Counted from the stretch's first letter, positions 8,737-19,910 are shown. The stretch is 64,000 nucleotides of DNA from an uncultured Clostridia bacterium (GCA_947581805.1 CANPVM010000001.1:249712-313711), one strand, 5' to 3'. Translations and numbers: made by a program. The notes: a model not told the origin generated them from the letters alone.

Positions 8737-8812
8737 CGCGGGGTGGAGCAGTTGGCAGCTCGTCGGGCTCATAACCCGAAGGTCGTAAGTTCGAGTCTTA
8801 CCCCCGCAACCA
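8737..8812 (+). tRNA. tRNA-Met (CAT anticodon), initiator-type (starts CGCGGGG, encoded CCA end)
   Basis: Cloverleaf: acceptor cgcgggg/ccccgca, anticodon loop CTCATAA, T-arm GTTCGAGTC; 76 nt ending in CCA. Confidence 0.9.
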
Positions 8813-8821
8813 AATATTTAA

Positions 8822-8862
8822 AGCCTAGTAGATTACAAAAATCTACTAGGCTCTATTTTTTT
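8822..8862 (+). terminator. rho-independent terminator after tRNA (gcctagtagat/atctactaggc + T-run)
   Basis: 11-bp perfect inverted repeat followed by ttttttt. Confidence 0.8.
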
Positions 8863-8934
8863 AATGCAAAATATACTTTTCATATATACAGCTAAGTGAT
8901 ATAATAGTAAAAAAATGTAAAAAAAGAGGGAAAA

Positions 8935-10734
8935 ATGTCAGAAATCAAAGAAGAAATATTACAGCAATATGGTATCTATCAAAAAAGAAAATTAAAAGAA
9001 AATGAAAAGATGCAATTGCTAAAAATCAAACAAGAGATAGAAAAAATAATAAAAATACCAATAGAGAAATTATACTTAGCAGAAGAAGCGGCATGGGGAA
9101 AAGAGCCAGAGAAATCTGCTTATAGTATCTGTGTATTAGTAGATAAAAGGACCAAAGACTTAAGAGAAAAAATAGATTTACTAATTCCTTATGCAAAAAA
9201 TAAAAAAATAGATATTGCATTAAGAGCAATGTGCCAATTTGAAAAAAGAAAAATGATACCAACAGAAAAAGATTATTATATTCATCAATATGGTATTAAA
9301 GTATATGATAGTGGAAAAGAGCCAGAAATTAATGAAAGTTTAGGAGCTACGCAATACGGAAGATATATGGAATATCATAGGGAATTCAGAAACTTTCTTC
9401 ATACAAATGTAGACTATTGGATGAATGAAACTGTTAGAATATATACTTTAAAAATGGGATATGCACTTATTAGTCGAAATGCAGAATTAGAAAGAGATTG
9501 TAATTTTGCAAAATTAATAACAAAAGATAAAAAAATTATTAGCATGATAGACTCTTATTTAGAGCAAACTGAGCAGAAAGCAAAAGAAAAAATATTAGAT
9601 GAGTTTGAAGAATATGTAACTAGTTTAAAACAAGTAAAATTTTCAGCAAAATTAGAAGAAAAACCAACCATGAAGGTATACGAAAAATTATTAAAAAGAA
9701 AACAGAAGCAAGGAACATTAGATATAAAAACCCTAACAAAAGACGATTTATATACTATGTATATTATACAGGATATTGATACTAGCCTAATAGCAGAATT
9801 ATATGGAGTAGAAAATAAAAAAATAGCAGAGAAAAGAAATTCTTGGCAAATCAAGAGAAGAGAAGCGGCCTTTACCAATACAGATGAAATAATAAAGAAA
9901 ACAATAGAATCCGCAGAAATGCAAAGCTCTATATATGCTTATGCTTTACTAAAGAAAAGTGGAATTATGGGCTTCGAAAAATGTACATTACCAATTCTAA
10001 AATATATGCTAGATAATGAAGTTTATTTATTAAAAGAATTTTGGCAATTTACTAAAAATGAAAAAAATAAAGAAGAAAAATTAATTTTTGGAGACACAAA
10101 ATATTCCTATTGTCAAGCAAGTATGGCTGTAGAACTATTATTACAAAACAACTTAATAAAAGAGGTAGATTTTAAACAATATCAAATTACAAAAGAAGGG
10201 AAGGAGTTAGTTTGGTATTGCATACAAAATGATATAGAAGAGATTACTATTCCAATTATTAATAAAAAATTTAAAAATGTTCAATATTATGAATTATATT
10301 ACACAGAAGAGTATCCTACTGATATCGAAGAAGTTACATGGGAAAAATTGTACCATAAATGGAATGAATATTGTCATGAAAACTTCCCTGAATTATTAAG
10401 AGAAGAAAATTTACCAATTGAAAATGAAGTAAAAAATGAAGAAGAGATTGCATTAGTTTGGATGTACTTATTCTTTTCTAATTTAGAATGGAGAAATCTT
10501 TTTCCAAAGCAATGGGAAAAAACAATCTTTATAGGTATCAATGATATTTTAAATCCAATTCGCCAACAAATAAAAGAAAAGTCAATTTCAGTTGTTATGA
10601 AAGAGGATTTTCAATTAACTCAATTTTTAGATATTTCAAATGTAACAAAATATATAGAAATAGAAAAAGTAGAAGATATGGTAGAATATGCAGCAGTTTC
10701 CTGTGCGTATTTAATAAAAATAAGAGAAAGGTAA
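8935..10734 (+). CDS. hypothetical protein, island operon gene 1 (599 aa); central ~190-aa module paralogous to N-terminus of gene 2
   Basis: RBS agaggg; residues ~245-440 ('KVYEKLLKRKQKQGTLDIKTLTKDDLYTMYI...IAELYGVENKKIAEKRNSWQIK...LLKEFWQF...AVELLLQNNLIKEVDFKQYQITKEGKEL') align with residues 1-195 of the next ORF; HTH-like character. Confidence 0.6.
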   Translation: MSEIKEEILQQYGIYQKRKLKENEKMQLLKIKQEIEKIIKIPIEKLYLAEEAAWGKEPEKSAYSICVLVDKRTKDLREKIDLLIPYAKNKKIDIALRAMCQFEKRKMIPTEKDYYIHQYGIKVYDSGKEPEINESLGATQYGRYMEYHREFRNFLHTNVDYWMNETVRIYTLKMGYALISRNAELERDCNFAKLITKDKKIISMIDSYLEQTEQKAKEKILDEFEEYVTSLKQVKFSAKLEEKPTMKVYEKLLKRKQKQGTLDIKTLTKDDLYTMYIIQDIDTSLIAELYGVENKKIAEKRNSWQIKRREAAFTNTDEIIKKTIESAEMQSSIYAYALLKKSGIMGFEKCTLPILKYMLDNEVYLLKEFWQFTKNEKNKEEKLIFGDTKYSYCQASMAVELLLQNNLIKEVDFKQYQITKEGKELVWYCIQNDIEEITIPIINKKFKNVQYYELYYTEEYPTDIEEVTWEKLYHKWNEYCHENFPELLREENLPIENEVKNEEEIALVWMYLFFSNLEWRNLFPKQWEKTIFIGINDILNPIRQQIKEKSISVVMKEDFQLTQFLDISNVTKYIEIEKVEDMVEYAAVSCAYLIKIRER

Positions 10735-10737
10735 AAC

Positions 10738-12000
10738 ATGGAGATATATCAAAAATTATTAAAGAAAAAGCAAGCAGGTGAAAAAATAGAATTAAGTAAT
10801 TTAACAAAAGATGAGCTTTATTTTATTTATATAGAAGAAGGTCATATTGTTAAGGATATTGCAAATTTATTTAACACATCGCAAAACGAAATAAATAAGT
10901 TAAGAAATAAGTGGAATATAAAGGTAACCCAAGAATTCATGACAGATCGTGAAACAATGAAATATGTTTATGAAAAATTTGGAAGCGGTTATGAGTATGA
11001 TTATCATTTATATTTATTAAAAGAACATATGGGACTTCCTACATTCGAAGACTTATTTATTCCATCTTTAATGCTGTTAAAAGATGAAAAAGTTCATAAT
11101 ATAAAAGAATTTTGGCATTTGACAGATAAAAACTATAAAATAAGCGAAGCAGAATTACAATATTGTGTATCATATGAAAATCCAACGTTATTTTATAGAG
11201 CTGATTGGTGTTTAGAAGCTATGTTAAAAGCAAACTTAGTAGAAGAAATCGCCTTTCGAGAATATAAAATAACGAAGCAAGGAGAAAAATTTTTAGAAGA
11301 CTGTATTAAAGAAGAAGTCAATCAATTTGGCTTAGGATATTTATTAAAGAAGTGCTCTAATTCTAATTTATCTTTATCAAATAATGTAAAAGAAACACAA
11401 CAAAAAACAAAAAAGGAAGAAAGTATTGTAAGTTCTAAGGTAGAAGAAACAAAAGAGGAACAAGAAAAAACAATCAAAGAGCAAGTTTCTAACTTAAAAC
11501 AAATTGATTATGTAGAAAATATAACAAAGAAGAAATCTTCAAGTAAAAGTACAAATAAATCAAAAGCAGTAAAAACTAATTTTACAAAAATGAATGAAAT
11601 AAAAACAGACTTTGGAAAAAAATGTGAAAGAATTATTTACGAACATGAAAAAGAAAGACTAAGGCAAGAAGGACAAGCAGAAAAAGCAGAACAAGTAATT
11701 TGGGCTTCCGAAGAAAAAGGAGACGGATTAGGTTATGATATTGAATCCTTTAAAAAAATAAATGGCAAATATGAAAAAATATACATTGAAGTAAAAGGAA
11801 CCGATAAAGATTGTTCAGAACCATTTGATGTTAGTATTAATGAAGTGATGGTATCAGAACAATTAAAAAATTCTTATTATATATATCGTATTGCAAAAGC
11901 AAATACAAAGAAACCTATTTTTTATAAAGTAAAGGGAAGCATAGCAGAAAACTTTGATTTAACAGCAATTAAATTTAGAGCTTCTAGGAGGAGTAAATGA
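10738..12000 (+). CDS. DUF3883 (NO VEIN C-terminal-like, restriction-endonuclease-fold) domain protein with N-terminal HTH-like module
   Basis: 4-nt gap after gene 1. C-terminal 'GKKCERIIYEHEKERL...VIWASEEKGDGLGYDIESF...IYIEVKGTD...SINEVMVSEQLKNSYYIYRI' matches NOV_C/DUF3883 pattern (GE..E..L...V.WVS...GYDI.S...IEVK.T...S.NE...A...Y.IYRV); Lys/Ser-rich linker. Confidence 0.7.
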   Translation: MEIYQKLLKKKQAGEKIELSNLTKDELYFIYIEEGHIVKDIANLFNTSQNEINKLRNKWNIKVTQEFMTDRETMKYVYEKFGSGYEYDYHLYLLKEHMGLPTFEDLFIPSLMLLKDEKVHNIKEFWHLTDKNYKISEAELQYCVSYENPTLFYRADWCLEAMLKANLVEEIAFREYKITKQGEKFLEDCIKEEVNQFGLGYLLKKCSNSNLSLSNNVKETQQKTKKEESIVSSKVEETKEEQEKTIKEQVSNLKQIDYVENITKKKSSSKSTNKSKAVKTNFTKMNEIKTDFGKKCERIIYEHEKERLRQEGQAEKAEQVIWASEEKGDGLGYDIESFKKINGKYEKIYIEVKGTDKDCSEPFDVSINEVMVSEQLKNSYYIYRIAKANTKKPIFYKVKGSIAENFDLTAIKFRASRRSK

Positions 12001-19074: not shown

Positions 19075-19158
19075 AATATAATGATAGTACAAGGTTCGAC
19101 AGACTTCGACAAAAATAATATGATATACTTTTTATAAAAAAGAGAAGGAGGAATAAAA

Positions 19159-19809
19159 ATGGGTATATCATCATTAATTTTAGGAATTATAGGACTACTT
19201 GTATCACTATCATGGTTTAAAGATTTAAGTTTAATAGTGTCAATTGTTGGATTAGTTTTAGGTATTGTTTCTCTAGTAAAGAAGCAGAATAAAGGACTAA
19301 GCATTGCAGGTATTATATTAACAGTTTTAAGCATAATCATATTATTTGCAACTCCAAGTGAAACTAATATTACATCAACTACTAGCACAGGCGAAGACAA
19401 TATTCAAGAAGCAAAAACATATGGACTAAATGACATAGTTACTATTACTACTAAGTCAGGAGAAAAATATGAAATGCAAATTACAGCTATAAAAGAAATG
19501 TCAGAAAGAAATCAATTTTCAGATATAAATCCAGCACAAGTATTTTTGATAGACTATACATATAAAAATATAATAGGAGAGGACTTATATATATCTGATA
19601 TGAATTTTCAAATCATTGATGAGCAAGGAGAAATGGGAGGTACATATCCTAATACTATAACTAATTATCCACAATCAACGCCAGAAGGGGCTACATGTAG
19701 AGCACAAATGATTTTATATACAAATAATAAAAGTAACTATATTACATTAATTTATAAAGACAATATGTTTAATGATAAAGCTGATTTAAAATTTATTATA
19801 AATATCTAA
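19159..19809 (+). CDS. membrane-anchored protein with DUF4352-like extracytoplasmic domain
   Basis: RBS gaaggagg; two N-terminal TM helices; Thr/Ser linker then beta-rich domain ('YEMQITAIKEM...DLYISDMNFQIIDEQGEMGG'). Confidence 0.4.
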   Translation: MGISSLILGIIGLLVSLSWFKDLSLIVSIVGLVLGIVSLVKKQNKGLSIAGIILTVLSIIILFATPSETNITSTTSTGEDNIQEAKTYGLNDIVTITTKSGEKYEMQITAIKEMSERNQFSDINPAQVFLIDYTYKNIIGEDLYISDMNFQIIDEQGEMGGTYPNTITNYPQSTPEGATCRAQMILYTNNKSNYITLIYKDNMFNDKADLKFIINI

Positions 19810-19816
19810 AGTTAGA

Positions 19817-19852
19817 AAAGAGTATCTTAATAAATAGGATACTCTTTTATTA
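19817..19852 (+). terminator. rho-independent terminator (aagagtatc/gatactctt + T-run)
   Basis: 9-bp inverted repeat then ttttatt right after stop at 19809. Confidence 0.65.
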
Positions 19853-19892
19853 ATCAAAGTATTACAAAATTTCTCAAAATCACTTGTCAAGC

Positions 19893-19910
19893 GCTCATAA
19901 CCCGAAGGTC
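19893..19910 (+). repeat. attR-like 18-bp direct repeat of tRNA-Met anticodon arm (identical to 8767-8784)
   Basis: Exact 18/18 'gctcataacccgaaggtc' in non-coding DNA 11.1 kb downstream of the tRNA. Confidence 0.7.

Follow-up and report, generated by a model that had tools for sequence, protein, structure and literature searches.

The 64-kb stretch of DNA analyzed here (the window; contig CANPVM010000001.1 of assembly GCA_947581805.1, from an uncultured Clostridia bacterium) carries beside comEA a tRNA-Met gene which is followed by an island of accessory genes and, some 11 kb further on, by a displaced and decayed copy of the 3' half of the same tRNA gene. Between the two copies lie a three-gene operon with a predicted nuclease, a MazG-like gene, a helicase gene and a toxin-antitoxin pair, together with further small genes (Table 1). 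We propose that the region from the tRNA gene to position 19979 is probably what is left, in fixed form, of one or more tyrosine-integrase insertions at the anticodon loop of this tRNA-fMet gene beside comEA, and that the site is now a defence hotspot which evolves by module replacement. Loci of relatives and viral contigs retrieved for comparison are designated by L-numbers.

Table 1. Features of the tRNA-fMet island and of its right flank (positions in the window; aa, amino acids; att, attachment site; HTH, helix-turn-helix).
Feature	Position	Strand	Evidence or remark
Initiator tRNA-Met (CAT), acting as attL	8737..8812	+	ARAGORN; Rfam 63.8 bits
18-mer copy 1, tRNA positions 31-48	8767..8784	+	Exact match
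Anticodon loop CTCATAA, inferred crossover (overlap) region of attB	8768..8774	+	Starts of viral attP; break between L007 and L037
tRNA terminator hairpin and operon promoter region	8813..8934	+	Same junction in L022, L037, L043, L040
Operon gene 1, 599 aa	8935..10734	+	N-terminal nucleotidyltransferase-like (weak), HTH/winged-helix module, helical C-terminus
Operon gene 2, 420 aa, Mrr_N winged helix and NOV_C (PD-(D/E)xK-type) nuclease	10738..12000	+	Pfam, PADLOC
Operon gene 3, 338 aa, mostly helical, no known family	11997..13013	+	Conserved with genes 1 and 2 in L022, L037, L040, L043
MazG-like nucleotide pyrophosphohydrolase, 105 aa, end of the module shared with L022	13165..13482	+	Pfam 2.7e-20
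263-aa protein, function not assigned	13502..14293	+	Weak PADLOC AbiTi match, E = 5e-4
SLFN group-3 / DUF2075 helicase, 656 aa	14306..16276	+	Pfam PF09848 1.7e-91; PADLOC PDC-S41 7e-14
139-aa protein, no function assigned	16254..16673	+	Pfam
XRE-type HTH pseudogene, four in-frame stops	16797..17039	+	Translation; Pfam HTH_3 E = 1e-3 with stops masked
Right-hand module, 98% identical to sister strain L004	17178..19892	+	blastn junction at 17178
MqsR-like toxin	17269-17625	+	Pfam
MqsA-HTH-Panacea antitoxin	17627-18643	+	Pfam
120-aa protein, no family match	18712-19074	+	Pfam
216-aa protein, weak DUF4190 match below Pfam cutoff	19159-19809	+	Pfam
Displaced, decayed tRNA 3' fragment (positions 31-76), acting as attR	19893..19938	+	Fuzzy search, repeat finder, nhmmer
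Decayed terminator hairpin with T-run, displaced along with the fragment	19939..19979	+	L025/L044 phage attP type
Region right of the repeat, still variable between relatives	20206..22260	+	Other genes upstream of maf in L013, L017, L021, L034
251-aa protein, no known family	20206-20961	+	PDB sequence search: nothing found
Type II C5 DNA methyltransferase	21061-22260	+	Pfam DNA_methylase 1.5e-67; PADLOC MTase_II 1.6e-169

ARAGORN calls a single tRNA gene in the window, a tRNA-Met(CAT), and Rfam concurs. Its sequence shows the mismatch C1xA72, the pair A11:U24 and, closing the anticodon stem, three G:C pairs (G29-31:C39-41), features which together identify it as an initiator tRNA-fMet. The 18-mer GCTCATAACCCGAAGGTC, which a preliminary description of this DNA had noted inside the tRNA gene and again in non-coding DNA downstream, does occur twice in the 64 kb, at 8767-8784 and 19893-19910; no third site was found even with up to two mismatches allowed, and shuffled sequences give an expectation of zero. 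It covers the last anticodon-stem pair and the loop, then the stem's 3' strand and the variable region, so that the repeat in the window begins 1 nucleotide (nt) before the anticodon loop, at position 31. The stretch between the tRNA gene and the first gene of the operon (8813-8934) contains neither an integrase nor arm-type repeats.

The similarity between the two sites runs well beyond the 18-mer. In a fuzzy search 8767-8812 and 19893-19938 were identical at 36 of 46 positions (22% divergence overall), a repeat finder extended the repeat to 44 nt at 80% identity, and a profile of tRNA 3' halves run with nhmmer recovered the second copy with E = 4e-5 and no third tRNA fragment in the window. 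All 10 mismatches fall in the last 28 nt, which are thus 36% diverged, the first 18 nt being intact. Eight of these ten changes, read from the sequence, are from G/C to A/T, a bias of the kind expected from decay in a genome of about 27% G+C; in base composition the island does not differ from its flanks. The same fragment is present, identical, in L004 and L005. Similarity then continues past the end of the tRNA, since the 41 nt at 19939-19979 match the sequence following the tRNA at 33 of 41 positions in prophage L025 and at 29 of 41 in viral contig L044, which represents a free phage attP, whereas the other element types found at this tRNA reach only 7-19 of 41. No other 41-mer of the window attains 30 matches to that terminator. 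This match beyond the tRNA end means that the second copy is a genuine displaced 3' half together with its terminator, 87 nt in total (19893-19979), and not a chance motif. The 18-bp repeat that had been proposed as the boundary of the island is supported as a mark of site-specific insertion at the tRNA, and the true repeat is longer. Arm-type repeats common to both ends of the island were not found, and k-mer sharing between the ends is not above chance.

The same tRNA gene is used as an integration site in related bacteria and by phages. The order of the left flank, with LytR, a PBP5-type carboxypeptidase, ComEA, a 61-aa open reading frame (ORF) and the tRNA gene, is kept in all relatives, and synteny with five related species, L008-L011 included, stops at window positions 8814-8819, the tRNA's 3' end. 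In L010 a tyrosine integrase lies directly 3' of the orthologous tRNA and is followed by a cyclic oligonucleotide-based antiphage signaling system (CBASS; SAVED, SMODS) and GmrSD; in L025, L026, and L030 a prophage (S24 repressor, RecT, DnaB) comes after an integrase; and in L031 and L033 an integrase 60% identical to that of L010 precedes a relaxase, TnpV and replication genes. In all three types of element the integrase is on the minus strand, directly after the tRNA. L011 has PRiA4_ORF3, HEPN and IS110 genes at the same position. The integrases at this attB belong to at least two families which are 28% identical to each other, and the occupants include type I restriction-modification (R-M), CBASS, GmrSD, NUDIX/DUF3427, a prophage and a mobilizable element. 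The interval from the tRNA to maf is variable in every relative examined; the L031/L034 genome has an interval of about 38 kb.

Searching IMG/VR for exact copies of tRNA positions 32-76 gave five contigs (four distinct), in which all 45 nt are identical, the sequence 5' of the 45 nt is unrelated and ARAGORN calls no tRNA. These contigs are attP sites, and their block of identity opens at the first base of the anticodon loop. In one of the viral loci, L044, TAGGCGTAA repeats are found on both sides of the site and the adjoining integrase is 75% identical to that of L025. The same edge is seen between the conspecific loci L007 and L037, which are 98.05% identical over 9.8 kb and have no similarity directly past CTCATAA (after position 38). 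The L025 integrase shares no more than 32% identity with integrases of named phages, and no match to the tRNA 3' half was found in GenBank phages.

Several further observations concern this site in the retrieved loci. The L007/L037 comparison (L007 11224-11300 against L037 9807-9826) shows that the tRNA-fMet gene of L007 has been split without being rebuilt, the contig ending 67 nt later; this arrangement resembles the short-core attP described for "tRNA-dependent lysogeny" (PMC10865867). Within the 100 nt after the tRNA each element type has its own terminator and candidate arm-type repeats, namely GGGGACAGCCTGGGGACACAA in L008, L010, and L031, TTGTCACACTTTGGTCACA in L009 and L011, and TAG(G)CGTAA in L025 and L044. 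The 61-aa ORF between comEA and the tRNA (window 8266-8451) is present in all relatives at 82-89% amino acid identity, and a sequence like it (75% nt identity) is found in phage contig L044 at 7785-7878, about 830 nt upstream of attP. Contigs which end inside the tRNA (L024, L027, L032, L038-L042) were considered as possible att polymorphisms and mostly rejected, most such ends being an assembly effect because the T-stems of the tRNAs of co-occurring species differ there. Logan contig L043 has its first base at tRNA position 32 (CTCATAA...), whereas contigs from other samples break at the T-stem; this start would fit a second sequence in the sample sharing the block from the anticodon loop onward.

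No recombinase was detected in the island, as the preliminary description had stated. Pfam found no recombinase domain in any ORF between the repeats, and tblastn against the window with three site-specific integrases of relatives gave only noise. A hidden Markov model (HMM) built from five integrases which target the tRNA-fMet site and run on 485 stop-to-stop ORFs of the whole 64 kb gave a best E of 0.18, while in L004, as a positive control, it picked up a recombinase stump of 49 residues with E = 1.9e-8. A probe for serine recombinases (gamma-delta resolvase; a weak test) found nothing. There is also no excisionase-like gene, no island ORF has a relaxase/oriT, replication or packaging/helper-interaction domain, and a pattern for the circle junction (attP) of the island had no match in IMG/VR. 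The gene-free stretch at 16674-17268, previously suggested to hold a decayed recombinase, was rejected as such a relic; its six-frame translation reveals an XRE-type HTH pseudogene instead, tblastn and the integrase HMM being negative there. Each of the pseudogene's stops (TGA, TAA, TGA, TAA) is one G-to-A or C-to-T change away from a plausible sense codon. An orthologous relationship of 16797-17039 to the 202-aa HTH_19 gene found upstream of maf in relatives was also considered and discarded, there being no tblastn match. The stump in L004 (2523-2833) is an internally deleted tyrosine recombinase located between half an hsdS gene and a toxin-antitoxin module, just left of where homology to the window starts, and keeps the N-terminal SAM-like end (about 40 residues) and the C-terminal catalytic end (48 residues); it may have been either an island integrase or a recombinase that shuffled hsdS.

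The first module of the cargo begins with the three-gene operon. Gene 2 matches Mrr_N (1e-9) and NOV_C (2e-18) in Pfam and, in PADLOC, PDC-S36 (7e-35), PD-T4-1 (2e-14) and TmtA (2e-14), with mREase_IV reaching just E = 0.008, and is likely to be the effector of the operon. An HTH/winged-helix module is shared as a paralogous domain by gene 1 (residues 246-445) and gene 2 (residues 1-205), at 31% identity and E = 3e-24, and the N-terminal domain of gene 1 has a weak likeness to ANT/MNT nucleotidyltransferases. The family of gene 1 is small (40 clusters), and many of its members are single fusion proteins which end in NOV_C. For gene 3 no relatives of known function were detected and a single-sequence AlphaFold2 model was unusable (predicted local distance difference test score of 36); PDB sequence searches found nothing for genes 1 and 3. 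The known systems closest to the operon are PD-T4-1, the type IV (Mrr-like) restriction nucleases and PDC-S36, which gene 2 resembles in having Mrr_N plus NOV_C. Unlike in these systems, gene 2 is always accompanied by two more genes, one for a nuclease-less paralogue with other domains and one for a helical protein, and the operon could be a new defence system. It was not found on viral contigs.

Together with the MazG-like gene the operon forms a block (8813-13483) which in every case immediately follows the tRNA, the terminator-promoter junction being the same, and which is found by blastn at 95.7% identity in L022/L023, 93% in L037/L038 and in L043, and 72.5% in L040-L042. ComEA of the L022/L023 species is 72% identical to that of the window. 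In the species which have the block at 93-96% identity, the genes beside it have reached saturation at synonymous sites. At third codon positions the window and L022/L037 are 64-70% identical in LytR, PBP5 and ComEA, and 87-96% identical in the three operon genes; for the MazG-like gene, absent from L037, the value is 84% with L022 only. Since the operon is so much more similar than its flanks, the block must have moved between species long after these had diverged. What comes after the block is specific to each lineage. The window has the MazG-like gene, the 263-aa protein and the SLFN helicase; L022 has MazG-like, a GIY-YIG-SLFN helicase and DUF7695; L037 has type I R-M; L040 has an Eco57I-like/ResIII system; and L043 has NUDIX, DUF3427-NOV_C, MazG-like, an SLFN helicase and DUF7695. 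The diverged SLFN helicase homologues of L022 and L043 occupy the same relative position.

Other species thus share at high identity only 8813 to about 13040-13500 and not the whole island. Within the species the sole polymorphism seen is that of L004, with one visible break at 17178, inside the island, where its homology to the window begins; to the left of it L004 has, in place of the window's sequence, type I R-M genes (the C-terminal part of HsdR and half of HsdS) and the recombinase stump, and as the contig reaches only about 2.9 kb left of 17178 the left boundary of the replaced part is beyond its end. The island is therefore a mosaic of modules with different histories. The earlier view of the 11 kb as one element does not survive the identity pattern of the operon, the lineage-specific genes that follow it and the L004 break. 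The divergence of the displaced fragment (36% in the last 28 nt) is of the same order as synonymous divergence between species; because of this, and because the fragment is identical in L004 and L005, the scar appears to be old, and the cargo would be younger.

The genes between the repeats are accessory, as had been supposed, and their family matches are of defence type and clustered: a PDC-S36/PD-T4-1-like nuclease, a PDC-S41-like helicase, a Panacea toxin-antitoxin pair and, adjacent, a type II methyltransferase. From these matches and from the company which the genes keep, the cargo may be supposed to defend against phages. In the earlier gene list the MazG-like gene, the DUF2075 protein (the SLFN group-3 helicase) and the toxin-antitoxin pair hold; the small membrane proteins could not be confirmed, the DUF4190 match of the 216-aa protein being weak and the 120-aa protein belonging to no family.

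The data show how the att sites of the locus are built, that integrases of relatives and of phages use this attB, that a recombinase is absent, and that the cargo has a mosaic history. For the locus as a whole we propose the following scenario. Elements of this type carry in attP a copy of tRNA positions 32-76 together with a terminator, and crossover in the 7-nt loop would join the copy of the element to the chromosomal 5' half and so leave the gene intact at 8737-8812. The 5' part of the present tRNA gene would then be chromosomal and the part from the anticodon loop onward would have been supplied by the inserted DNA. The previous 3' half with its terminator would have been pushed to the far end of the insert (19893-19979), where, without function, it would decay toward A+T. 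The integrase and any excision functions would have been lost afterward, a loss that would leave the island unable to move by itself. The remaining locus behaves as a defence hotspot with independent replacement of its modules, these being the 8813-13483 block, the helicase module and the module with the toxin-antitoxin pair and the putative membrane proteins. That an integrase made this particular insertion, and the order of these events, is what we infer from the pattern; module exchange probably proceeded by homologous recombination anchored on the invariant tRNA.

A number of results weigh against this scenario. No empty site was present among 43 retrieved loci inspected for one, including those obtained through Maf and ComEA homologues, and in no retrieved locus was there a presence/absence polymorphism bounded by both repeat copies. 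The arrangement envisaged in the preliminary description, with comEA and the tRNA followed directly by the R-M genes and maf, thus did not turn up, and the polymorphism that was observed is not bounded by the repeat. The retrieved DNA of L022, L037, and L043 stops before the right ends of their homologous islands. Two exact-pattern scans of Joint Genome Institute metagenomes, one for the right flank of this species and one for the tRNA with the phage-type terminator, gave no match, nor any contig with the pattern predicted for an empty site, and many contigs break at the tRNA. A perfect 18 nt beside a remainder that is 36% diverged conflicts with uniform decay (P = 0.003 for none of the ten mismatches falling within the 18 nt), although by our arithmetic this P becomes about 0.01-0.05 with the 7-nt loop set aside, because any crossover resets the loop. 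Lastly, five lineages have the operon, at 72-96% nt identity, always right beside the tRNA and with no integrase, and its place there could be an old resident state and not an insert.

A refinement compatible with the proposed insertion, and one which we regard as possible though not the likelier course, is that the locus is the relic of a tandem array. A phage of the L025/L044 type would have rebuilt the tRNA first, the present island would then have displaced the phage piece, and the prophage to the right of 19979 would later have been deleted or replaced by R-M genes. The terminator of the displaced fragment, so much closer to the P' arm of these phages than to any other element type at the site, is what would be expected if the element entered an already rebuilt tRNA; here the locus is like the tandem arrays of tRNA-gene islands in Islander, of which 125 cases are documented (PMC4383910). 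However, past the terminator the window contains no arm-type TAGGCGTAA repeats and no integrase remnant, there is no second fragment for the far end of the former prophage, and the phage may equally have copied its attP and terminator from such a chromosome, in which case the fragment would be native. With one fragment and no integrase left, an array cannot be demonstrated.

Between the two fates earlier proposed for the element, degradation and mobilization in trans, degradation is to be preferred. Mobilization in trans, by which the island would still be a mobile unit moved by an integrase from elsewhere in the genome or from an infecting phage using the same attB, is weakly supported and seems to us unlikely. 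In its favour, the intact 18 nt (loop, 3' strand of the stem, variable region) next to the diverged 28 nt would fit selection on a core site, no fewer than two families of integrase have this attB as their target in relatives, transfer of the first module between species into this one site is clear, and the start of L043 at tRNA position 32 would fit a second sequence sharing the block. Yet the 64 kb have no integrase, there is no excisionase-like gene, the two ends have no common arm-type motifs, unlike the real attP of L044, and no attP-like end junction was found in IMG/VR. In addition, the only visible polymorphism break is at 17178, inside the island, other species share a part and not the whole unit, and without the crossover loop the intact core is of marginal significance.

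A more specific idea, which we would hold to be just as doubtful, concerns the 4.7-kb block by itself: it might be a self-contained cassette, made of the tRNA 3' half, the terminator, the operon and, where present, the MazG-like gene, that encodes an undescribed anti-phage system and spreads between species to the tRNA-fMet loop without an integrase of its own, by borrowing those of phages and other elements which use the same attB. The weakest explanation is that there was no insertion and that the second copy is a tandemly duplicated tRNA-fMet which has lost its 5' half, the genes in between being long-term residents; the five lineages in which the operon abuts the tRNA, down to 72% nt identity, the flank-like base composition and the lack of an empty site would agree with it, but it is very improbable, as a chance deletion endpoint would be needed to place the edge of similarity within 1 nt of the loop start, where four phage attP begin and L007 and L037 diverge, as the operon is by synonymous-site identity much younger than the flanks, and as the DNA which other species carry there is entirely different and bears integrases.

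As a probable insertion in the tRNA-fMet anticodon loop that has since decayed, the locus falls among well-known systems. The preliminary description regarded the position of the repeat in the anticodon arm as an oddity. In Islander, however, an anticodon-centred attP is the commonest sublocation, found in 2083 of 3919 tRNA-gene islands as against 1836 in the T-stem region (PMC4383910), so that the position is not unusual; moreover the repeat also runs to the tRNA's 3' end and beyond. As in the islands with an anticodon-centred attP (class "A"; Williams, 2002; Islander, PMC4383910), an intact tRNA is here combined with a 3' fragment in direct orientation, the block of identity extends from the anticodon loop to the 3' end, and the attB is used by several integrase lineages. 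Unlike in class "A" islands, the fragment is 22% diverged, the content is mosaic and no excised or empty state was seen. Of the features by which Islander recognizes an island, the complete tRNA, the same-orientation fragment and a recognized crossover sublocation are present; there is no integrase gene, and the locus therefore fails Islander's own filter.

The locus is also like the tRNA-linked defence hotspots, such as hotspot #37 of Escherichia coli, in that different defence modules occupy a fixed position beside a tRNA gene and no means of mobilization can be identified here; in hotspot #37, 68% of the occupied cases have no detectable mobile element (PMC10121019). Both marks of a defence hotspot, clustered candidate systems and variable content at one conserved position, are found. 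Unlike in hotspot #37, a scar of the founding integration is still present, the lineage that hosts it is an uncultured one of rabbit-gut Clostridia and the target is an initiator tRNA. The locus is thus an ordinary decayed tRNA-linked defence island or hotspot, real and well delimited, which does not challenge current ideas on genomic islands. Its value lies in documenting, for uncultured gut Clostridia, a case in which a tRNA integration site has turned into a long-lived defence hotspot, with the scar retained, the integrase gone and the cargo being exchanged. The small and uncharacterized three-gene nuclease operon, which moves between species, is worth testing for phage defence.

Some minor observations were made outside the island. 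The 251-aa protein to the right of the repeat may, to guess from its position, be the restriction partner of the neighboring C5 methyltransferase. In L021, whose Maf is 87% identical, maf has Cas6 on one side and, on the other, another C5 methyltransferase along with three unknown genes that include DUF6339 (L021 6565-8216; 365-5562), and in this clade variable defence territory therefore extends to either side of maf. The ComM/YifB-like Mg-chelatase gene consists of two overlapping ORFs, 23998-24621 and 24618-25472 (207 and 284 aa); since L004 and the more distant L013, L015, and L016 have it split in the same way, this is a conserved state and not a recent frameshift. At the far end of the window the minus strand has, at 63568-63795, a short stretch whose identity to the relatives' genes for the PBP5-type carboxypeptidase is 67-76%; it is probably a paralogue at the window edge.

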